From UHGV virus genome UHGV-0175179: a DNA stretch of 29,565 bases, one strand, 5' to 3'. Shown here in pieces: positions 1 to 29,565 of this stretch. This stretch comes from a virus. The notes under the pieces were generated by a model. It made no database searches. It had not been told where the DNA came from and was given only the letters and a program-made list of their open reading frames with translations. Position 1 is the stretch's first letter. The number at the start of each line of letters is the position of its first letter. A program made the translations under genes and the position numbers.

Positions 1-153
1 CAGACCGGGAACCCCTGACATGGCGTTCCCGTTTTTCTCCCTTTACACCCTTTTTTCACCTTTTCTAAAAACGCCCTTGACCTTCCCCTTGCTGGGAGGT
101 TTTCAAGTAGCGCAGTACCGCAAGGCACTGCGCCAATTCAGTATTTTACAGAC

Positions 154-1176
154 TTAACTAACCCTCAAAACCCCCGCATTGCCTCCAGAGTGTGGACGCA
201 ATGTGGACATTCCACTAAGGGGATTGTAGCTCACTGCATCCAGTAAATAGTCCGGCGCGAAGTGAGCATAGGTCATAGTCTGCGATATGTCGGAATGACC
301 AAGAATTCGTTGTAACGCGATAATATTTCCGCCCTTAATCATGAAGTGCGTGGCGAACGTATGACGTAGCGCGTGCGCGGCTTGCCCATCTGGAAGATTG
401 GGCTTTGCTTCTTTCATACGCAGACGGAAGGTTTTATAGCTCACGCGGAACAGTCTTCCCGATTCCTGATGTTTCACTATTTTTGCAATGTCGTCAGATA
501 TGGGGACCACCCGCCGATCTCCGTTTTTAGTGATCGTAAACATCACCCTGTTACCGACAATGTTTTCCGCTTTAAGCTGGTAGGCTTCGCCCCATCGAGC
601 ACCGGTAGCAAGCAGCAGAACGGCGATGCGGTAGTAATCACCTGAGCACAGGGATAACAGCCGGTTTACTTCCGACTCAGTGAAATACGACATTTCCGTT
701 TTTGGCTCTTTCAGCGCTGAAATTGCTGTTACCGGGTTTTCACCGTGAAACTCATCAATTTCGGCCATAGCTTTAAACACACCACTAAGTGCAAACAGGT
801 CATGATTTATCGTTGAAGCCTTGATCCCTTGCTCCAGCCTATATGCCCGGTAATCAATAAGACATCGCGCATCAATCTGGTAAATCATGGGATCCCCCAT
901 ATCGTGGCAAATGCAGTTAACAGCACTAAGCCTGCGGTTTGCGTAGTTCTTATTCCGTCCGATTAACTGCCACCATAACGCGATAAATTCGCTTAGTTTT
1001 CGCTTATCAGCCGGTCTATTTAAATAATCATGGTTTTGATACTTGGCAATAATGCTGCGCTCAAAAGCGTGCGCATCTGCCTTTCTCTCAAACTTCCGCC
1101 GAATGCGCTTTCCGTCGCGCCCGCGCGGCCTGACATCCACTTCATAGCGACCATCTTCGAGTTTCTTAACGGACAT
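154..1176 (-). CDS. int: Tyrosine integrase, P2 Int-like (track ORF begins at a TTG at 1191; ATG at 1176 preferred)
   Basis: Translation MSVKKLEDGRYEVDVRPRG...HALRHTFATHFMIKGGNIIALQRILGHSDISQTMTYAHFAPDY carries the tyrosine recombinase catalytic box (R..H..R..Y region) and closely resembles P2 Int from memory. GGAGGG lies about 8 nt upstream of the ATG at 1176. Confidence 0.9.
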   Translation of the reverse strand: MSVKKLEDGRYEVDVRPRGRDGKRIRRKFERKADAHAFERSIIAKYQNHDYLNRPADKRKLSEFIALWWQLIGRNKNYANRRLSAVNCICHDMGDPMIYQIDARCLIDYRAYRLEQGIKASTINHDLFALSGVFKAMAEIDEFHGENPVTAISALKEPKTEMSYFTESEVNRLLSLCSGDYYRIAVLLLATGARWGEAYQLKAENIVGNRVMFTITKNGDRRVVPISDDIAKIVKHQESGRLFRVSYKTFRLRMKEAKPNLPDGQAAHALRHTFATHFMIKGGNIIALQRILGHSDISQTMTYAHFAPDYLLDAVSYNPLSGMSTLRPHSGGNAGVLRVS

Positions 1177-1245
1177 AAGAAAACCCTCCAACAGTCAGAT
1201 CACTATCCTGGTAACAAATAGTGAAAATGTAATGTTTATATAAAG

Positions 1246-2852: not shown

Positions 2853-3836
2853 ATGATTCGATCTCTCGTTAAATGGCCCGGTGGTAAAGGCCGCGTTATG
2901 CCTGATTTGCTGCCGATTCTGCCGAAAGCCGATTGCCTGGTGGAACCGTTTGTCGGCGGTGCTTCTGTTTTCCTCAATACTGAATATCGCCGTTATATCC
3001 TGGGTGATATAAACCCAGATTTAATTAACCTGTATCGCCAGATAGCCCGCTGGCCTGATGTGGTGATCGACGCTGCTCGCCCGCTGTTTAAAGTGTACGG
3101 TGATAAAGACGGCTATAAGTGGATCCGCGACGATTTCAACGCTCGCGCCCATGACCTTCTTTCATCGCGCAATGTGTTTGAGGACGGACCGGACGCGGGC
3201 AAGATTCTTCGTGCAGCACAGTTTCTTTACCTGAACCGTCACGGATATAACGGCGTAGTGCGCTACAACCAACAGGGCGGATATAACGTTCCCTTTGGTA
3301 GACACAAAACCCCGCCTTACTTCCCGGAAGAACAGATCCGTTTATTCTCTGAAAAAGCTAACGACACGAAAGCTATTTTCGTGTGCTGCGATTTCCAGAG
3401 CACGTTAAAAATCACGATTGGTAGTGACGCGGTTATCTACTGCGATCCGCCATACCTGCCAACAAGCGAAACCGCTAATTTCACCCAATACCACACCGCC
3501 CCGTTTGGGATTAAAGAGCATCGCCAGTTAGCTGCCGCCCTGCTGGATATTAACCGCCTTACTGGTTCGCCGGTGATCCTGTCCAACAGCGACACCCCTG
3601 CTACCCGCGAGATTTATCACACTTTCAACTTCCAGGAAATCAGCGTTAACCGTTCTGTCAGCGCGAACGCCATTACCAGAGGGGTCGCCAGTGAAGTGAT
3701 TGGCGTCCTGAAAGTGTGCAGCGGCTGCGGTCGTGCCGATGGTGGCCGTTGTCCTGACTGCGGCCCGGTAATGGGTGACGCGACCTACAACGAAATGCTG
3801 GCATCGGCTGCGGCCAATGGCGTGGAGGCTTTTTAA
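2853..3836 (+). CDS. dam: DNA adenine methyltransferase, Dam family, with a C-terminal Cys4 zinc-ribbon extension
   Basis: KWPGGK and LVEPFVGGASVFLNTEYRRYILGDINPDLINLY are near-identical in pattern to E. coli Dam (KWAGGK, LVEPFVGAGSVFLNTDF..YILADINSDLISLY). DPPY catalytic motif present (IYCDPPYLPT). The C-terminal ~45 aa add CSGCGRADGGRCPDCG. GGAGA RBS 8 nt upstream. Confidence 0.9.
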   Translation: MIRSLVKWPGGKGRVMPDLLPILPKADCLVEPFVGGASVFLNTEYRRYILGDINPDLINLYRQIARWPDVVIDAARPLFKVYGDKDGYKWIRDDFNARAHDLLSSRNVFEDGPDAGKILRAAQFLYLNRHGYNGVVRYNQQGGYNVPFGRHKTPPYFPEEQIRLFSEKANDTKAIFVCCDFQSTLKITIGSDAVIYCDPPYLPTSETANFTQYHTAPFGIKEHRQLAAALLDINRLTGSPVILSNSDTPATREIYHTFNFQEISVNRSVSANAITRGVASEVIGVLKVCSGCGRADGGRCPDCGPVMGDATYNEMLASAAANGVEAF

Positions 3837-4038: not shown

Positions 4039-5049
4039 GTGGGTGCTTTGGCTTACTACAACGAAATCGATCCATATGCAGCACAGTGGCTGCGCAACCT
4101 CATTGATGCCGGGCATATTGCGCCAGGCATTGTTGATACCCGTTCAATTGAGGATGTAACCCCCAATGACCTTAAAGGCTTTACTCAATGTCACTTCTTT
4201 GCCGGGATCGGTGTGTGGTCATATGCCCTGCGTCTTGTGGGCTGGCCGGACGACAAACCGATCTGGACTGGATCCTGCCCATGCCAGCCTTTCAGCCCGG
4301 CAGGCAAAGCAACTGGGTTTGATGACGAGCGGCACTTATGGCCCGCCTTTCATTGGCTCATTGCTCAGTGCCGCCCTGTCGTTGTCGCTGGCGAGCAATC
4401 TGGAAGCGCTAACGCGAACGTCTGGCTCGACCTTGTACAAACTGACATGGAAAGCCTGGGCTATGCCTTCGGGGCGGTCGCGTTTCCGTCTGCGAGCGTC
4501 GGTGCGCCACACATCCGGGACAGAGCTTACTGGGTGGCCGACACCAACGGCGAGCGCATGGAAACACCCTGGAAATCAGGGGAGGCAGGGAGGCTTGAAT
4601 TTGCAAACGGCCACAGCATTAGCTGGGTGGCCGACACCAACAACACAGAGCAACAACCAAATCTCAGGAGTTGGAGCGGCTGCAGATCACCCGAAGCGCG
4701 GGACAACTTTGGGCGGGGCTGCTCAGCTGTCGGGGTGGCCGACACCAGCTTCAAGGGACGGCAAGGGGGGGTATCAGGGCGGGAGGATGCGCAACGGGAA
4801 GCTGTCGACGGACACGCTGGATGTGACGGCGCAAATTGCGGGACCGGTCCGGTTAACGGTTTCTGGCGATCTGCTGACTGGCTGTATTGCCGGGATGGAA
4901 ACTGGAGGCCAGTTAAACCCGGACTTAAGCCGCTGGTTGATGGGGTTACCGGACGAGTGGGAAAAATCCGCGCCTACGGAAACGCTATCAACGTTGAAGC
5001 TGCAACAGCGTTCATAAAGGCTTATATGATGGGGGCGTCAAATGTCTGA
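4039..5049 (+). CDS. DNA cytosine-5 methyltransferase, phage orphan Dcm-like (GTG start); reading frame integrity uncertain
   Basis: Motif I-like FAGIGVW, motif IV PCQPFSPAG, motif VIII-like APHIRDRAYWVA and motif X-like RAYGNAINVEAATAFIKAY in this frame. GGGAGG 7 nt upstream of the GTG. The stop overlaps the gpA start. Confidence 0.8.
   Translation: MGALAYYNEIDPYAAQWLRNLIDAGHIAPGIVDTRSIEDVTPNDLKGFTQCHFFAGIGVWSYALRLVGWPDDKPIWTGSCPCQPFSPAGKATGFDDERHLWPAFHWLIAQCRPVVVAGEQSGSANANVWLDLVQTDMESLGYAFGAVAFPSASVGAPHIRDRAYWVADTNGERMETPWKSGEAGRLEFANGHSISWVADTNNTEQQPNLRSWSGCRSPEARDNFGRGCSAVGVADTSFKGRQGGVSGREDAQREAVDGHAGCDGANCGTGPVNGFWRSADWLYCRDGNWRPVKPGLKPLVDGVTGRVGKIRAYGNAINVEAATAFIKAYMMGASNV
4531..4749 (+). 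repeat. Three direct copies of a ~15-bp motif GGGTGGCCGACACCA inside the Dcm-like gene
   Basis: Copies at 4531-4548, 4623-4641 and 4732-4749, read directly from the sequence. They encode WVADTN / WVADTN / GVADTS in the gene frame and GWPTP three times in the overlapping frame. Confidence 0.8.
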
Positions 5050-8253: not shown

Positions 8254-8580
8254 TTATGCTGTCTGGCCGTTGAGCAGGTCCAGCGCGAATTGACGTTCTT
8301 CCGGCTTGAGCCGGTCAATCAGGAATTTAACCAGCTTGTTACCGGTCAGCCCGCTGGGGCTGAGAGTATGTGAAAACTGGGCGTTAAAAACAAAGGTATG
8401 GCCGCATTCAACTTCCGTGCAGGCGCAGTACAAATCAGCCAGTTTTTTGTCTTTCCAGTCAGATTTACGAATGATGGCCGGTGAGCCGCATTCAGGACAT
8501 TTAATTTTAAAAACTCGCATGTTCACCATCCCGCACGCCATTGCTAACAATGGGGATGATTTTAACTTAATTGCGCTCAT
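8254..8580 (-). CDS. ogr: Ogr/Delta-family zinc-finger late transcription activator (possible shorter form starting at 8520)
   Basis: CPECG...LYCACTEVECGHTFVF matches the Ogr/Delta C4 zinc-finger pattern (P2 Ogr CPLC...YHQCQNVNCSATFIT). The ATG at 8580 overlaps the portal stop (ATGA); an internal ATG at 8520 would give an Ogr-sized 89-aa product. Confidence 0.75.
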   Translation of the reverse strand: MSAIKLKSSPLLAMACGMVNMRVFKIKCPECGSPAIIRKSDWKDKKLADLYCACTEVECGHTFVFNAQFSHTLSPSGLTGNKLVKFLIDRLKPEERQFALDLLNGQTA

Positions 8581-9638
8581 TTTTCGCCCTTTTCGGCGGT
8601 GATTGCCGGGATATCCACGTCAAAAACCAGGTGCAAGTGTGCGGGGATCTCCGGGTCATTGTTGACGCCGTTCATTAGCTTGCGCTGCAACGGGATAACT
8701 TCATCCTTGCGATAGGTTGTGCGGGCGGTTTCAGGGTTGCCCATTACCGCGCCGTTGGTCGGGATGATACCCGCCAGGCCAGCGGGAAAACGGTGGGCGG
8801 TAAAGATATCCTGTGCGGTGATCCCTTTGATGTTGGCGAATTCATCCTTTGCGCTGACTTCGCCCACTGGCATGATTTTAACCCCTTCCGGGTCGCCCTT
8901 CGGGATGTTGATAAACATATTGCGGAAGTTACCCAGCCCTTTGGACTGGGCGATCTTCTCTTTGATTTCGTTTTCCATTTCCAGCGTGAGATTGGGATCG
9001 CTGGTATAGAGAATAAAGCCCATGTGCGCCCCGTTATTGTAGTAACGGCGGCGGAAAATGGTTGCCTCACTGTTGAGTAACACCGAATGGATGCCGCCGA
9101 TATAGTCAGGCAGGCCATATACCTGCTGGCGCGGGTCGTACATTTTAAAGAAAACGATGTCTTCCGGGTCATAGATAAGCGCTGGCCCTTCCTGCAGAAC
9201 AGCAAACGAGCCGTCTTTCCGGCAGCGCAGATACAGCGACGGCAGCGGCAGCAGGTCGATCACTTCCCCGAATACGTTACGAATTTTCAGGATAGCGACG
9301 TCACCAAACAGCAGGTAATCAAAGACAGCCTGTTCGACCTGGTCAGGCGTCAGGCCGCCGCCAATATAGCCACCGGCCACCATATTGCGCCGCGCATACA
9401 GCACCCCACCATGCTGGCCGTTAAGGTTCGGCAACTGGGCCAGCGCCAGGCGATCAATCGGGAGTCGCCAGTGGTCATATTCATTGTCATACCAGATATT
9501 GTGATAATCCGTGCCGGTCGTCAGGATGGGTTCGGGTTCGCCAAATGTGATCACGCTTCCGCGCCCTGGCGTGAAGGTTTCAACCTTGCTGCCGGTCATG
9601 GACCTGAATTTTTTATTATTACGCTGTTTCTTTGTCAT
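8577..9638 (-). CDS. Q: Portal protein, P2 gpQ-like
   Basis: 353 aa. Lies immediately downstream of the large terminase gene on the same strand with an ATGA overlap, as in P2 (P then Q). Size and sequence character match gpQ. Confidence 0.8.
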   Translation of the reverse strand: MTKKQRNNKKFRSMTGSKVETFTPGRGSVITFGEPEPILTTGTDYHNIWYDNEYDHWRLPIDRLALAQLPNLNGQHGGVLYARRNMVAGGYIGGGLTPDQVEQAVFDYLLFGDVAILKIRNVFGEVIDLLPLPSLYLRCRKDGSFAVLQEGPALIYDPEDIVFFKMYDPRQQVYGLPDYIGGIHSVLLNSEATIFRRRYYNNGAHMGFILYTSDPNLTLEMENEIKEKIAQSKGLGNFRNMFINIPKGDPEGVKIMPVGEVSAKDEFANIKGITAQDIFTAHRFPAGLAGIIPTNGAVMGNPETARTTYRKDEVIPLQRKLMNGVNNDPEIPAHLHLVFDVDIPAITAEKGEK

Positions 9639-11446
9639 GCTGCTTTCCCAAAGTACCAGCCCGATGGGCGGTCATATTCGTGATCGATAGGTTCGTTAAT
9701 TACGGCGTGCGAAATGGCGAAGAAAACATCTGCATGGCCGGTCGCATCAGAGCGTTCGGCAACAAACGTCAGCGCGTTGCCGCTGTTGGTTGTCGTGCGC
9801 CGGATAGCCATAAAGCTGGCCGGAATTTCGACACGCTCCTTGTTCGTTTCGTCTACGGCGTCTTTTGCCCATTCGATGCGCTTACGCTCGACAACGTCGA
9901 TCATCTTCATTACCAGACGGTTTTTGCTTTCGACGCTGTAAAGAATCGGTGTGGCTTCGCGTGGAGCAAACTTGCTGACCAGGTCATAAACGCCTTTACC
10001 AATGCCGGTTGTATCGATCCCGATGTAAGTGATGTTAAAGCGGCGCATAAGCTGCTTTATCTGGTCAGCCTGCCAGCTAAAGTTAAAGCCCTGCCATTGC
10101 CAGACGGCCAGCACGCGGAAGCGCTCGCCGTCCTCTATGGGGGGCGCGATTAACACAAAGGTGGAGTTGTCGCCGGATCGCGATGGGTCAAAGCCTGCCC
10201 ATACTTCGCGATTGCCGAAGGGTCGTGCAGCGGTTAGATCAAAGTCGCCCCATGTGGCTCGGTCCACTTCGCAGCCGACAAGCGCGGAGAACTTGAAAAC
10301 CGCGTCCTTACTGTCAACAAACTGGCACATGTAGAGCATGGCAAACGCGGTCGGGCTGTATTTGTTGCGCAGCCGTTCAATATCGACAAGCGCCCCGAGG
10401 CCGCCTTCGATAGCGTCTTCCATCGTGATGATGTAGCGCCAGATCTGGTCCGGGCAAAGAATGCCATGGCGCATTTCGCTTTCTTTCGGAAACGCCACAC
10501 CTTTGCGTTTCGGGTCGTCCCCGCGCCAGGCTTCGCCAGTCCAGACCGGGTAAGCCTGGTGCGTTTTCGCGCTGGGCGTCGAAAAGTAGGTCGTGCGGTA
10601 TTTGTTATGCGTTGCCATTGCGCTGGCAACTTCATGCAGGCGCGTGAATTTCGGGATCCAGAAAACCTCATCACCATACAGGTGGCCGTTAAAGCCCTGC
10701 GCGGTGCTGGCGTTCGTGGACAAAAAGCGCAGTATTGCGCCGTTGCTGAGGCGGATATTTTTACCCGTCAGCGTCACGCCGAAATGGTTCTGAGCGATCT
10801 GGACGATGTATTCACGGAAGATTTCAGACTGGGAGCGGCTTGCAGAGAAAAAGACCTGGTTATCACCGGTAATGACAGCATCTTCGAATGCCTCCCAGGC
10901 GAAATAATAGGTCATGCCTACCTGTCGGCTTTTCAGAATGAAACGCCAGTCTTCGCCTTTATGTTCGCGGCAGTGCAGCTGGTACTCGAAGAGATGTTCC
11001 CGCGCCCAGGTGTCGAGCATTTCCGCTGTAATACCGGAAACGTCGTTTTTCTTATACCGGCGCTTTCTTTCCCCAGGTTCCCCGCCTGCGCTGCTGAGGC
11101 AGTACCCTTCATCATCATAAGCCGCTTTCTGGGCCTGAATTTCTGCCAGCTTTTCGGCGTGCTTGTTGCGCTGCGCCATGAGTTTTACATGGTGAGCAAT
11201 CAGATCGCGCAGTTCTTCCAGTTCCAGCGCTGTTTTTTTCTCGCGGCGGGAGAGCTGGTCGATACGGCGGGCGATGACATTTTCCACCGATTCAACAGGC
11301 AGCAGTGATGCCCACTTCCCGACGTCAGCCCAGTGGTAAATTGTACGCGGTGGAATATTCAGTTCCTGCGCAATATCTTTCGGCGTCCAGCTTTTTATAT
11401 AAAGCGTGCGGGCCGCTTCTTTTAATTCATCGGAATATTTAGCCAT
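9635..11446 (-). CDS. P: Terminase large (ATPase) subunit, P2 gpP-like
   Basis: 603 aa. Walker A-like segment (LKSRQVGMTYYFAWEA region) and nuclease-domain character. Divergently arranged against the scaffold gene, as P2 P/O. Confidence 0.85.
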   Translation of the reverse strand: MAKYSDELKEAARTLYIKSWTPKDIAQELNIPPRTIYHWADVGKWASLLPVESVENVIARRIDQLSRREKKTALELEELRDLIAHHVKLMAQRNKHAEKLAEIQAQKAAYDDEGYCLSSAGGEPGERKRRYKKNDVSGITAEMLDTWAREHLFEYQLHCREHKGEDWRFILKSRQVGMTYYFAWEAFEDAVITGDNQVFFSASRSQSEIFREYIVQIAQNHFGVTLTGKNIRLSNGAILRFLSTNASTAQGFNGHLYGDEVFWIPKFTRLHEVASAMATHNKYRTTYFSTPSAKTHQAYPVWTGEAWRGDDPKRKGVAFPKESEMRHGILCPDQIWRYIITMEDAIEGGLGALVDIERLRNKYSPTAFAMLYMCQFVDSKDAVFKFSALVGCEVDRATWGDFDLTAARPFGNREVWAGFDPSRSGDNSTFVLIAPPIEDGERFRVLAVWQWQGFNFSWQADQIKQLMRRFNITYIGIDTTGIGKGVYDLVSKFAPREATPILYSVESKNRLVMKMIDVVERKRIEWAKDAVDETNKERVEIPASFMAIRRTTTNSGNALTFVAERSDATGHADVFFAISHAVINEPIDHEYDRPSGWYFGKAA

Positions 11447-13730: not shown

Positions 13731-14435
13731 ATGGCTATGACCCTGTGTCAACGACACCGAGCACGCGTGAAAGCCGCAAAGGCGCTGGATAACCGCGAAG
13801 CCCTGACCGCGTCGCCGGTCAGCTTCCACCTGCAAAAGCTGGAGCTGGAAAAAGATGTCGCAATGCTTCGCAGCGTACAGCGCACGGAAGACCGCATCGA
13901 ACTGAAGCGCGATGTTCTTCTGCCGCGCTGGATGCCGACCGTTGAAGCATACCTCGCCGGTGATGCCCGCTTTGCCAATCCGGCCCTGGTTTACTGCGTG
14001 ATCTGGTTGTTCGATACGGGGGAAATGGGCAAGGCGCTGGACTGGGCTGACGTGGCTATCAGTGAGAGCCAGGCCACGCCGGAGAACTTCAAAAGCAACC
14101 TGCCCGCCTTTGTGGCCGATACGGTGCTGGAGTGGGCGATCATGCAGGCGGAAGCCGGTCACAGCATCGAACCCTATTTCAGCCGCACGTTTGAAAACAT
14201 CCGCGAAAAGTGGCGTTTGCACGAAGACATTAACGCGAAGTGGTTCAAGTTCGCCGGTCTTTATCTGCTGCGCGACGAGAAGGGGCAGCCGCGTGCCACT
14301 GCCGTGGATGATGTGAACACGCTGGAGCAGGCCGACGCCCTTTTGGCCCAGGCGGCGGCGTACAACAAAAACGCCGGAGTTAAGACCATGCGCGAAAAAA
14401 TCCGCGCCCGGATTAACGGCCTGACCCAGCTTTAA
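13731..14435 (+). CDS. M: Terminase small (endonuclease) subunit, P2 gpM-like
   Basis: 234 aa, directly after the capsid gene as in P2 (N then M). Confidence 0.7.
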   Translation: MAMTLCQRHRARVKAAKALDNREALTASPVSFHLQKLELEKDVAMLRSVQRTEDRIELKRDVLLPRWMPTVEAYLAGDARFANPALVYCVIWLFDTGEMGKALDWADVAISESQATPENFKSNLPAFVADTVLEWAIMQAEAGHSIEPYFSRTFENIREKWRLHEDINAKWFKFAGLYLLRDEKGQPRATAVDDVNTLEQADALLAQAAAYNKNAGVKTMREKIRARINGLTQL

Positions 14436-26821: not shown

Positions 26822-28546
26822 ATGAAACCAATTAAACGCCTGTACCTTTCCTCTGATCCGGTCCATCTGATTGACTGCAATATCGTGCTGGAGCTGAACG
26901 CGTGCGGTCGGGGGTTTATTACGGCAGGGACAGAGACAGATTACACCGGCAAGATGGTGCGGATCGATGTTGGCTATGATGGTCTGGTCCTGCGCTGGTT
27001 TACCGGGTACGTTGAACGGTCACAGCCTGCTGATAATGGAACATGCCGGTTATTCGTGCGTGAGCTGGTTGGCATCTTTGACAAATTGTGGCCGTGTTCT
27101 TTCCAGCATCCAACGCTGCGCCAGATTACTGACTGGATAAGTGAGCAAAGCGGGCTTACCGTCACAACGCCGGTCGGCGCTGCTTATGCAGATAAACCGA
27201 TCCCCCACTTTACGCATAGCGGCACGGGCTATCAGCTTCTTGCCAGTCTGGGCCGTGCATTTTCAGTGACGGATTATCTTTGGTATCAGCTGCCGGACGG
27301 GGATGTCTTCGTCGGCGCTGCGGAGCACAGTCTTTTTGCGGGTAAACCAGTGGAGATCCCGCACGAATTTAGCCAGGAATCGGCAGGCGGAAATTCAATG
27401 GTTGTGCCAATGATTCAGAGCCTGCGACCGGGTGCGGAAGTGAACGGCCAGCGGCTGAACCAGGTTCGGCTAAATAACGACGACATGGCAATCACATGGC
27501 AGCCCCGCAACAAAGCCAACGGCCAGCCATTGCAAAAATCACCGATTCAGCGGCAGATTGAAAACGCATTCCCGGAGCTGGCAAGCGGCCTGCATCTTCC
27601 AAAGTTCGCCAGGGTGGAAGCACCAAGCGAGGATGTTTCCGGGGGGAATATTGCCGATCCATTCCGCCCGCGCTACGCCGTGGATCTCCAGCTGCTTGAC
27701 GAAGACGGCAAGCCAGCCGCAAATACGCCGGTTTATTCTGCCGTTCCGCTACCTGTGCCAATGGCGGGCAGCGAGTCGGGAATGTTCCAGTTTCCGCCCC
27801 CTGGCACGCTGGTTGAAATTGGGTTCACTGAGGGGCGGCAGGATAAGCCCTTTGTGCGCCAGATTATGGCGGAGGGTCATAACCTGCCAGCGGTTAAACC
27901 CGGCGAGCAGTTGCAGCAACAGCGCGATGGTGTATCGCAGCGCGTGACGGTTGCCGGAGACTGGGAACGCCAGACGGACCAGACAATCCGCGAAAACTCC
28001 ATGATGCGCGAAGTCACCACCGACGAAGAGATCCGCAAAGTGGTTGTCCGTGAAACTACGGTCCAGGCAACGGATAAAACAACCGTGCTTGGCACGGCCA
28101 CACTTCTGGCCGGGGCGGTGGTCCATATCAGCGAGGGTGATTACAGTATCGGCACATCCGGCAACCTGACAGTAACCTGCAGCAAGGACAATTCCGTCAG
28201 TGTTGGCCGGAACGTAAAACGGGACGTCGCGGGCGATGTTACAGACGACGTGAAAGGGAATGTTACGTCAAACGTCAGCGGCGCACTGACTGAAAAAATC
28301 AGCGGCATCCGCCGAAGTGTGGCCCAGGCGCAACAGCTGATTGCCCCGGTGGTAAAACTGGGAAGCGAAGAGATTAACGTCCTGACACTACTCACCGACA
28401 CCCTGGACGTGGTGAGGGAGCTGGCAGAGACTGCCGCGTCACATACTCACCCCAATACAGGGGCCAGCGGGCAGGCTGCACAGTTCACCGCAACGGCCAC
28501 TAAAACCGGCACATTAAAAAGCAAATACGGTCCCCTGATAGCCTGA
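26822..28546 (+). CDS. Baseplate central spike protein (gpV / gp5-like OB fold with C-terminal beta-helix)
   Basis: FPPPGTLVEIGFTEGRQDKPFV matches the gpV/gp5 OB-fold signature. C-terminal repeats (GDVTDDVKGNVTSNVSG) and HTHPNTG resemble spike beta-helix and apex His motifs. Confidence 0.6.
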   Translation: MKPIKRLYLSSDPVHLIDCNIVLELNACGRGFITAGTETDYTGKMVRIDVGYDGLVLRWFTGYVERSQPADNGTCRLFVRELVGIFDKLWPCSFQHPTLRQITDWISEQSGLTVTTPVGAAYADKPIPHFTHSGTGYQLLASLGRAFSVTDYLWYQLPDGDVFVGAAEHSLFAGKPVEIPHEFSQESAGGNSMVVPMIQSLRPGAEVNGQRLNQVRLNNDDMAITWQPRNKANGQPLQKSPIQRQIENAFPELASGLHLPKFARVEAPSEDVSGGNIADPFRPRYAVDLQLLDEDGKPAANTPVYSAVPLPVPMAGSESGMFQFPPPGTLVEIGFTEGRQDKPFVRQIMAEGHNLPAVKPGEQLQQQRDGVSQRVTVAGDWERQTDQTIRENSMMREVTTDEEIRKVVVRETTVQATDKTTVLGTATLLAGAVVHISEGDYSIGTSGNLTVTCSKDNSVSVGRNVKRDVAGDVTDDVKGNVTSNVSGALTEKISGIRRSVAQAQQLIAPVVKLGSEEINVLTLLTDTLDVVRELAETAASHTHPNTGASGQAAQFTATATKTGTLKSKYGPLIA

Positions 28547-28750
28547 CAAAAAGCGGTATAATCGCACACCTCACCAGACACCACAGAACGCGCCACAGCA
28601 GGCGCAAGCATTAAAGGTCGCCACCGTGCGGCCTTTCTTTCGTTCGTTCAACAGCGGCCCACAGCGTAAGCGACAGCTGGCAGACGGAAGCGGATCCAGG
28701 ACGGAAACGGCGCTACACCGCACCCGCCTGCGCAGTTTGGATCATAAAAA

Positions 28751-29041
28751 TTTTGCAAAAGAAATTTTGTGCAAAGCACCCCGCCAGCCTGCGCCGCTGC
28801 TGGGCTTTTGAATCCTGCGGGTGTTTGCACGCTGCGCAAAGATTTGCAGCACTTTGCAAAAGTCACCGCGCCGCCAGTTGCTAACCGACTGGATAACATG
28901 ATGTTTTTAAAAGGATCGTTTTAGATTCCGTCACGATCAAATGTGGTCGGCGGTAGTCTGGAAAGTTTCTTTGAAAAATGCGTGAAGCCTTGCGCGGCAA
29001 GGCTTTGGGGGAAAATGAGGCTGCTATAGTTTTTGCAAAAT
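28751..29041. repeat. Cluster of TTTGCA(A) / TGCAAA(G) repeats and dyads in the 3' non-coding region
   Basis: TTTTGCAAAAG (28751), TTTGTGCAAAG (28767), TTTGCACGCTGCGCAAAG dyad (28824-28841), TTTGCAGCACTTTGCAAAAG (28843-28862), TTTTTGCAAAAT (29030). A perfect palindrome GCCTTGC-GCG-GCAAGGC at 28987-29003. Confidence 0.5.
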
Positions 29042-29055
29042 AATGCGAGGAAGGA

Positions 29056-29565
29056 TCAATCGGGCAAGCGCCCTTTTGTCACTTCATAATCAACCATTTT
29101 GTTTGTTTTTGTGTCAAGGGTGCATGAATACGTCATGTTAACTTTGGCGTTAAACCCATTCGTAAATTTCAGTTTGTCACCCACGTAAACAATCTGGTTT
29201 TGTTCCGGTTTATTGATGTACCGACTAAAGATATTTTCAAATGCACCGTTGGTCCATTCGAAATCATACTTTGAAGTTTTCTCAATCGGGCTTTTGCAGG
29301 CTACCAAAGCATCAACCAAATGGGCTTCAAAAATACACTGCCCATCATTCTTATCACACACCTTTACTTTTGGCTCATCTTTGGCCGTTGCCTCTTCATC
29401 ACCGCTGAAATACCAGTAACCAATTGCCCCAAGGATTAAAAGAAAAACAAAACCACCCATTGCATCTTTGGCGCTAAAGCCAGGATCCTTTACTCCACAA
29501 TGAGGGCAAGTCTTAGCCTTTGCTGATACCTCTTTTTTGCACTCTTTACATTTTGTCATTGCCAT
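29056..29565 (-). CDS. Zinc-ribbon membrane protein (N-terminal CxxC...CxxC, one TM segment, periplasmic domain); reaches the window edge
   Basis: MAMTKCKECKKEVSAKAKTCPHCG zinc ribbon, then hydrophobic GGFVFLLILGAIGYWYF. Low G+C relative to the prophage. Likely host gene or prophage-edge cargo. Confidence 0.5.
   Translation of the reverse strand: MAMTKCKECKKEVSAKAKTCPHCGVKDPGFSAKDAMGGFVFLLILGAIGYWYFSGDEEATAKDEPKVKVCDKNDGQCIFEAHLVDALVACKSPIEKTSKYDFEWTNGAFENIFSRYINKPEQNQIVYVGDKLKFTNGFNAKVNMTYSCTLDTKTNKMVDYEVTKGRLPD

Follow-up and report, generated by a model that had tools for sequence, protein, structure and literature searches.

The non-coding spacer at positions 28547-29055 of UHGV virus genome UHGV-0175179, a stretch of 29,565 nucleotides that is referred to as the window over its full length, was analyzed by comparison with related phages and prophages. 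The window holds a prophage of a Citrobacter chromosome, and with a probability of about 0.88 the spacer is the cohesive-end site (cos) of this HP1-type prophage of the P2 family, consisting of a nicking box and terminase-recognition repeats. This reading is supported by a shared gene order and sequence homology with the experimentally mapped cos site of Haemophilus phage HP1, by the virion ends of relatives, which lie in the box, by the conservation of the box, and by a concerted change of the repeats and of a helix in the terminase. Such an element is ordinary for phages, cos sites as such are well known, and this one was previously unannotated. A modest novelty lies in the presence of the box in more than 120 related contigs and in a clade-specific switch of the repeats together with the helix of the large terminase. 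The features of the spacer and the relevant genes are compiled in Table 1.

The gene order of the prophage (int, C, cox, rep, ogr, portal, large terminase, scaffold, capsid, small terminase, tail, orf33-orf34-orf35) matches that of HP1, a phage of the P2 family. The spacer is located between the stop codons of a 574-aa gene, which is the homologue of HP1 orf35 and the final tail gene, and of an open reading frame (ORF) of 169 aa, and both genes converge on it. In the HP1 record (NC_001697, Hpunavirus), which follows the linear virion map, the annotation runs from cosL (1-9) through attP (251-694) and int (698-1711) to orf35 as the final gene at the right end. As in the window, cos follows the baseplate gene orf35 and precedes attP and int. 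In HP1, cos and attP are about 250 bp apart without a cargo gene, whereas the window carries a cargo gene between them. The right end of HP1 contains ACAAATAAATCT and three CACGGAAAAT repeats, to which GACGGAAGCGG and GACGGAAACGG are the counterparts in the window, and its left end contains TTTTTTCAGTT, TTTTTTCAGTTAGATTTCAAAA and further TTTTCA/TGAAAA repeats, which align with the repeat side of the window. The junction of the HP1 ends aligns at most 2 nt from the start of the box. The two sites differ in the nicking box, which reads TCCTTCCCCACCG in HP1 where the window has CTACACCGCACCCGCC, and in the repeats, which are of the TTTTCA type and accompanied by another recognition helix in HP1, whereas the clade of the window has the TTTGCA type. 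The proteins of HP1 are 31-52% identical to those of the window and its terminase is of the same type, with an N-terminal gpP-like helix-turn-helix. The overhang of HP1 has a length of 7 nt. Terminase genes of both the gpP and the gpM type were detected in the prophage genome using Pfam.

Phage P2 (NC_001895), which belongs to the same phage and terminase families as the window, has a 19-nt cohesive end (cosL 1-19) and packages from circles. About 45 nt inside its left end it carries ATTTTTTCAG, a distance similar to that of cluster A in the window. Its cos site, however, is located beside the portal gene Q and not beside attP, and its cohesive end GGCGAGGCGGGGAAAGCAC is unrelated in sequence. 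In Pseudomonas phage phiCTX of the P2 family, the order is cos, ctx cargo, attP and int. It shares with the window the cargo (moron) between cos and attP, whereas host and cos sequence are different, as is the cargo itself, which in the window is a zinc-ribbon membrane protein of 169 aa.

Table 1. Features of the spacer and genes of the prophage that are relevant to its interpretation (positions in the window).
Feature	Position	Strand	Remarks
attL core CTTGACCTTCCCCTTGCTGG	76-95		Window 1-75 is host DNA; from the comparison of attP, attR, attL and empty attB
Integrase gene	154-1191	-	
DNA methyltransferase genes	2853-3836, 4039-5049		Dam-type (MethyltransfD12) and C5
Ogr/Delta zinc-finger gene	8254-8580	-	
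Large terminase gene, gpP type	9635-11446	-	N-terminal helix-turn-helix; proposed reader of the repeats, in trans; Pfam Terminase_6N, Terminase_6C, Terminase_5 (residues 8-62)
Small terminase gene, gpM type	13731-14435	+	In trans; Pfam Phage_term_smal, E = 1.5e-36
574-aa gene, orf35 homologue	26822-28546	+	Final tail gene
Rho-independent terminator of the late tail operon	28613-28636	+	9-bp stem followed by CTTTCGTTCG; -12.4 kcal/mol, z = -3.0
Direct repeats GACGGAAGCGG (28683-28693) and GACGGAAACGG (28700-28710)	28683-28710	+	Tail-gene side, 'right end' of the virion map
26-nt box AACGGCGCTACACCGCACCCGCCTGC	28706-28731		Proposed nicking site (analogous to cosN)
Cluster A, TTTTGCAAAA then TTTTGTGCAAA	28751-28775		Within an A+T-rich stretch
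TTTTGCAAAA palindromes	28751-28760, 29031-29040		
G+C-rich dyad CCAGC-N10-GCTGG	28784-28803		Between clusters A and B
Cluster B, TTTGCACGCTGCGCAAAGATTTGCAGCACTTTGCAAAA	28822-28861		Plus-strand copies at 28824, 28843 and 28853, spacing 19 and 10 bp
Dyad TTTGCACGCTGCGCAAAG	about 28824-28841		
Weak IHF-like site TAACATGATGTTT	28894-28906	+	Followed by an A/T tract and GGATC
Palindrome GCCTTGCGCGGCAAGGC	28987-29003	-	Fold of -13.0 kcal/mol, z = -4.1, then T-rich CACGCATTTTTC
Cluster C, second TTTTGCAAAA palindrome	29031-29040		Final conserved element ahead of the variable cargo
Cargo gene, 169 aa	29056-29565	-	Zinc ribbon and one hydrophobic segment; sets the right border, outside cos

For each of the relatives SW5, ESSI-2, ev015 and ev129, a terminus of the virion-derived record falls within the 15 nt CTACACCGCACCCGC (28713-28727). 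The record of SW5 ends on the tail-gene side with ...GGCGCTACACCGC (...CTACACCGC) and starts on the attP side with GCACCCGCCTGC... (GCACCCGCC), and that of Cronobacter phage ESSI-2 has CTACACCGCACCCGC at both ends. ESSI2_ev015 ends with ...GGCGCTAC followed by a Nextera adapter and starts with GCACCCGCC, while ESSI2_ev129 ends with ...GGCGCTAC followed by the adapter and starts with the adapter followed by CGCCTGC. In the records of SI7 and SW3, which were assembled across the site, exactly CTACACC (7 nt) is missing there. Together these are six records of genomes of around 30 kb, apparently from three groups as judged by the record metadata. An overhang of 7 nt is implied by the gap in SI7 and SW3 and by the start of SW5 and ev015 at box position 8, one of 15 nt by the duplication in ESSI-2, or the length is another one. 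The best candidate for the single-stranded overhang is CTACACC (28713-28719), judging from the sequences of these ends.

With regard to the same records, the Nextera transposase adapter CTGTCTCTTATACACATCT... is present at the termini of NC_049395.1 (ev015, L134 at about 1-45) and NC_049394.1 (ev129, ends of L141 and L142). In ev129, a 'hypothetical protein' coding sequence (CDS) is annotated over one adapter-bearing terminus.

Exact matches to the 16-nt core of the box, CTACACCGCACCCGCC (28713-28728), occur in over 120 IMG/VR contigs, and almost all of these have conserved flanks of the consensus ...ACAAAATAAATC...GAC(A/G)AAAACGGC(A/G)-CTACACCGCACCCGCC-TGC...GGATC...AAATTTTTCAGTTTT...CTACAAA...GCCAG.... 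The complete 26-nt box of the window recurs without change in phages with a protein identity of just 50-65%, so that selection acts on the DNA itself. At the position of the direct repeats on the tail-gene side, relatives have GAC(G/A)(G/A)AAACGG, with a within-class conservation of 0.82-0.98. Within the class of loci that carry TTTGCA repeats, conservation is highest at 28683-28862 and 28883-28942, with 0.84-0.87 in cluster B, and these peaks therefore point to a functional site of about 260 bp. In the searched collection of papers, neither the box sequence nor descriptions of cos for these phage genera were found. The box can serve as a precise cos marker for a large group of enterobacterial HP1-type prophages, in whose GenBank records the site is unannotated.

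The spacer is 95% identical to that of Salmonella phage SI7 (Irrigatiovirus) and of prophages in 19 E. coli genomes. Just past repeat cluster C, SI7 and the E. coli prophage cease to be homologous to the window. Two distant matches, a phage contig of Salmonella Kentucky and Yersinia phage vB_YenM_324, have no more than a short central segment of the spacer in common with it, to which the 16-nt core belongs. Two contigs, L098 (7226-7650) and L114, contain the exact box and the left flank followed by another right flank without the TTTTCAG array, and in L098 a tRNA 3' fragment, likely an attachment (att) site, is located around 380 nt past the box. These contigs may represent another variant of cos recognition or a prophage end that has been rearranged. 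A satellite carrying this cos was considered for L098 and rejected, as this contig represents an ordinary prophage, in which orf33-35 lie upstream and the tRNA fragment downstream.

In the earlier note, at least five TTTGCA/TGCAAA-type repeats, some of them as dyads, had been described for the spacer. Nine hexamers could be located and the dyads were confirmed. On the plus strand, TTTGCA starts at 28752, 28824, 28843, 28853 and 29032, and TGCAAA at 28754, 28770, 28855 and 29034. These nine starts fall within 28745-29045 (301 bp), for which 0.30 are expected from the remaining window (Poisson P = 4e-11), and any other 301-bp stretch of the window contains at most two.

In HP1 and most relatives, TTTTCAG/CTGAAAA sites take the alignment columns of the TTTGCA/TGCAAA sites, which form three clusters. 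In the columns of cluster A, most relatives have TTTTTCAGTTTT...CTACAAA and the left end of HP1 has TTTTTTCAGTTAGATTTCAAAA; in those of cluster B, CTGAAAAGATTGAAAAGAATTTCAnnnTTTTTCAG is found in most relatives and AACTGTAAAAATTTCAATCTTTTTCATCATTTTTCAC in HP1; and in those of cluster C, relatives carry AACTGAAA(A/T)TT. A minority class of the 122 family loci contains between 5 and 10 hexamers of the TTTGCA type and close to no TTTTCA, and for the majority class the reverse applies. Members of the TTTGCA class are the window, SI7, the E. coli prophages and the loci L060, L078, L083, L099 and L120, to which L357, L363, L379, L384, L398, L402 and L410 were added later. Since the change is concerted at seven or more sites, a single sequence-specific protein must read the repeats. 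Two further loci, L096 and L387, carry mixed TTTGCA and TTTTCA repeats at homologous positions and could be intermediates of a specificity switch.

Two forms of the recognition helix in the large terminase subunit (TerL) can be contrasted, IPPRTIYHWADVGKW versus LPNARIVYYWAEKYSW. The helix of the window reads ELNIP-PRTIYHWADVGKW and belongs to the type 'IP-x-RTIYHW', whereas ESSI-2, YenM_324 and ev015 have ELNLPNARI(V/I)YYWAEKxxW, i.e., the type 'LPN(A/R)RI(V/I)YYWA', of which HP1 carries the close variant 'LNSRRPIYYWA' with the YYWAEKxxW part kept. Other helix variants are found in L184, L185, L188 and L190. Terminase genes and cos loci were paired by contig name. The 'IP-x-RTIYHW' helix is accompanied by TTTGCA repeats in 13 of 13 paired genomes, with an N-terminal TerL identity down to 69%, and the 'LPN(A/R)RI(V/I)YYWA' helix or its HP1 variant by TTTTCA repeats in all of the six paired genomes, including the distant HP1. 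This pattern in the compared sequences is suggestive of the helix-turn-helix of the large subunit as the reader of the repeats. The small terminase was rejected as the specificity determinant, as its N-terminus fails to track the repeat type and differs between HP1 and ESSI-2, although both have TTTTCA repeats. In the 'phages' collection, no intermediate terminases were found, the matches being either at least 99% or less than 60% identical.

On this basis, it is tentatively proposed, at somewhat short of even odds, that the Irrigatiovirus-like clade of Salmonella, Citrobacter and E. coli forms a distinct packaging-specificity group among the HP1-type phages, in which the ancestral box was kept, the repeats were changed from TTTTCAG to TTTGCAAA and the TerL helix was changed alongside. 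If true, the N-terminal domain of gpP and not the small subunit would be the determinant of cos specificity in the P2 family, and the two clades would provide a natural pair of orthogonal packaging signals. The joint switch of repeats and helix suggests how packaging specificity is set in this family, a question that bears on phage-satellite piracy and on the design of cosmid-like vectors.

The earlier note had also considered an array of regulator binding sites. An array of protein-binding sites does seem to be present, but its role is seen in DNA packaging and not in regulation. It is unlikely that the TTTGCA array is an operator for C, Cox, Ogr or a host factor, which would control the cargo gene or the read-through of the tail operon and limit cos to the box. 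The palindromic TTTTGCAAAA 10-mers do resemble the sites of dimeric helix-turn-helix proteins, and the clade-specific change of the motif shows that a sequence-specific protein reads the repeats. The motif is, however, absent from the C-cox switch (1545-1600) and unclustered elsewhere in the phage, and owing to the convergence of the flanking genes there is no gene start in the spacer to regulate. Moreover, the homologous repeats of HP1 are confined to positions 1-170 of its virion chromosome, and the repeat type tracks the terminase helix.

Several points weigh against the interpretation as cos or against parts of it. The virion records disagree with each other, with left ends placed at positions 1, 8 and 13 of the box and right ends at its positions 0, 4, 9 and 15, which leaves the overhang length at 7, 9 or 15 nt and its polarity either way. 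The mapping of the ends is second-hand and stems from the assembly ends of relatives produced by other laboratories, not from virions of this prophage. The covariation of helix and repeats amounts to about one evolutionary switch between two clades and is weak as statistics, and L096 and L387 with their mixed repeats lie outside the pairing of terminase and cos. The repeats might instead bind another phage or host protein. Finally, the putative binding site of the integration host factor (IHF) in the window is a consensus match only and a poor one, with two mismatches.

For the spacer as a cos site, the following course of packaging can be proposed. After excision and replication, the terminase encoded by the genes at 9635-11446 and 13731-14435 would recognize the right-hand side of the box through the TTTGCA/TGCAAA sites of all three clusters, for which the N-terminal helix-turn-helix of TerL is the most likely reader. 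A host DNA-bending factor may assist at about 28894. At the homologous position of the family members (about +181 from the box), YAANNNNTTGATW is present with at most one mismatch in 65 of 158 cases, compared to 18/158 and 3/158 in control intervals. Judging from the virion records of the relatives, staggered nicks would be introduced inside CTACACCGCACCCGC (28713-28727). By analogy with lambda, packaging would then start from the repeat-bearing side, i.e., from the cargo gene, attP and int onward, and proceed to the next cos. The GACGGAA repeats on the left side would be part of the end entering the capsid last.

The cos of lambda is organized as cosQ-cosN-cosB with R sites and the IHF site I1, and the proposed layout of the spacer resembles it in having a nicking site, terminase-binding repeats on one side and a bend site between the repeats. 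In lambda and phage 21, packaging specificity results from matched pairs of repeats and terminase helix-turn-helix. The spacer and the prophage terminase show no sequence or protein homology to the lambda system, and the recognition helix of lambda is part of the small subunit Nu1, whereas the candidate in the prophage is the N-terminus of the large subunit.

In its title, the earlier note had placed the spacer at the 3' end of the prophage, and an attR site had been suggested. The spacer does lie near the right end of the prophage but not at it, as the 169-aa gene and around 0.2 kb of attP arm precede attR. A second copy of the core CTTGACCTTCCCCTTGCTGG was located 189-208 nt past the start codon of the 169-aa gene, outside the window and beside copA. 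This places attR around 0.7 kb to the right of the spacer, with the junction in the copA promoter and around 1 kb away from the box. An empty attB is present in Citrobacter braakii ATCC 51113 (NZ_NAEW01000003, L418), where the sequence is identical to window positions 1-75 and the core is located in the copA promoter. The alignment with this uninterrupted locus, a check proposed in the earlier note, puts the junction at CTTGACCTTCCCCTTGCTGG and outside the spacer. The spacer is missing from the empty attB and is phage DNA, not host intergenic sequence of prophage-free strains.

An attR within the spacer, together with sites for integrase, IHF and excisionase, has next to no probability. Such a site would fit a non-coding, repeat-rich region close to the right end of the prophage, and the distance of around 250 bp between cos and attP in HP1 indicates that cos and attP are ancestral neighbors. 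Against this, the first 400 nt and the last 1.1 kb of the window have no common word of 9 nt or more, and the core and the arm-type sites lie elsewhere. The integrase arm-type repeat TGTGGAC is absent from 28547-29055 and present at 191-208 as well as beside attR/attP in L003 and L004. In addition, around 350 bp separate the spacer of SI7 from the attP arms of that phage. Accordingly, the right end is re-read, with the conserved repeats marking a packaging site and not a junction.

Two observations concern the attachment site itself. The core presumably overlaps the -35 and CueR operator region of the copA promoter; its duplication keeps the copA-proximal promoter sequence at attR, and everything upstream becomes phage DNA. 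On the metagenome contig represented by L003 and L004 (ena:ERZ17930848 NODE_35, 92.5-134.7 kb), the 169-aa gene occurs twice at a distance of around 30 kb, once by copA (attR) and once by int (attP), and the core was derived from a comparison of both copies with the window. This contig is either a tandem double lysogen or a merged assembly of the integrated and circular forms.

A small RNA or a sigma-54-like promoter had been named as further possibilities. A small non-coding RNA encoded by the spacer, or a promoter of the sigma-54 or another type within it, is considered highly improbable. The search with the Rfam 15 covariance models on both strands of 28300-29300 gave no match up to E = 10, the RNA fold of the box is no better than that of shuffled sequences (z = +0.7), and conservation concerns the primary sequence, without compensatory changes. 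A sigma-70-like match at 28535-28562 could yield a transcript of about 75 nt ahead of the terminator at 28613-28636, but it is the only match in the promoter scan, for which 1.0 is expected by chance. For a sigma-54 promoter, GG at -24, GC at -12 and the consensus TGGCAC-N5-TTGCW with conservation among relatives were required. The element TGCGCA-N5-TTGCA loosely resembles a -24/-12 promoter but lacks the GG, and most relatives have CTGAAAAGATTGAAAAG at the homologous position.

The absence of a convincing ORF from the spacer, as stated earlier, was upheld. The longest ORFs comprise 83 aa or less and show no coding signature. Against eight diverged relatives, substitutions are distributed evenly over the codon positions (e.g., 136/125/137), and these relatives have internal stop codons and -1 indels in the frames of the spacer ORFs. 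A hidden small gene of the ogr-like or toxin-like kind was rejected, as Ogr/Delta is encoded elsewhere in the prophage (8254-8580) and the spacer ORFs fail the codon-position test. In several records, a 'hypothetical protein' CDS is annotated over the cos repeats or the DNA adjacent to the box, namely in SI7 (gp25, L001 3431-3595), SW5 (L128 18-182), SW3 (L143 240-404) and YenM_324 (gp37, L006 2340-2486). Because the corresponding ORFs of the window are without a coding signature, these annotations are probably spurious, and the box can also be used to flag such calls.

Furthermore, the spacer contains elements that lie beside the repeats. Its first 90 bp correspond to the 3' end of the tail operon and its terminator. 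Nearly all relatives have retained the dyad GCCAG...CTGG(C/G)G, which is located between clusters A and B, and because its RNA fold is no more stable than that of shuffled sequences (z = +1.2), it is more likely a site at the DNA level. The perfect palindrome GCCTTGC-GCG-GCAAGGC described in the earlier note was found at 28987-29003. It follows the stop codon of the 169-aa gene (29056) at a distance of 53 nt and is below the T-run criterion of the terminator scan. The palindrome is probably the terminator hairpin of this convergent gene. GATC sites are present at 28693, 28740, 28914, 28935 and 29054, i.e., five in 509 bp, and several of these belong to a GGATC whose position is conserved among relatives. 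As the phage encodes a Dam-type and a C5 methyltransferase, a link between methylation and the use of cos is conceivable by analogy, with the pac site of P1 as a precedent for a connection of methylation and packaging.

Among the remaining genes, the ORF at the position of cox has no family match, the repressor adjoins the integrase in the gene order and the replication protein is of the GPA type. The Ogr/Delta late activator is located directly upstream of the portal gene within the portal-terminase operon, while its P2 counterpart is located beside attP. For the 169-aa protein, only weak zinc-ribbon matches were obtained with Pfam and none with PADLOC. The cargo slot between cos and attP is variable and contains an AbiH abortive-infection protein in E. 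coli 2011C-4251 (L002 4832-5797) and a serine acetyltransferase with small ORFs in ev015 and ev129 (L135 197-1949), so it looks like a moron or defense hotspot.

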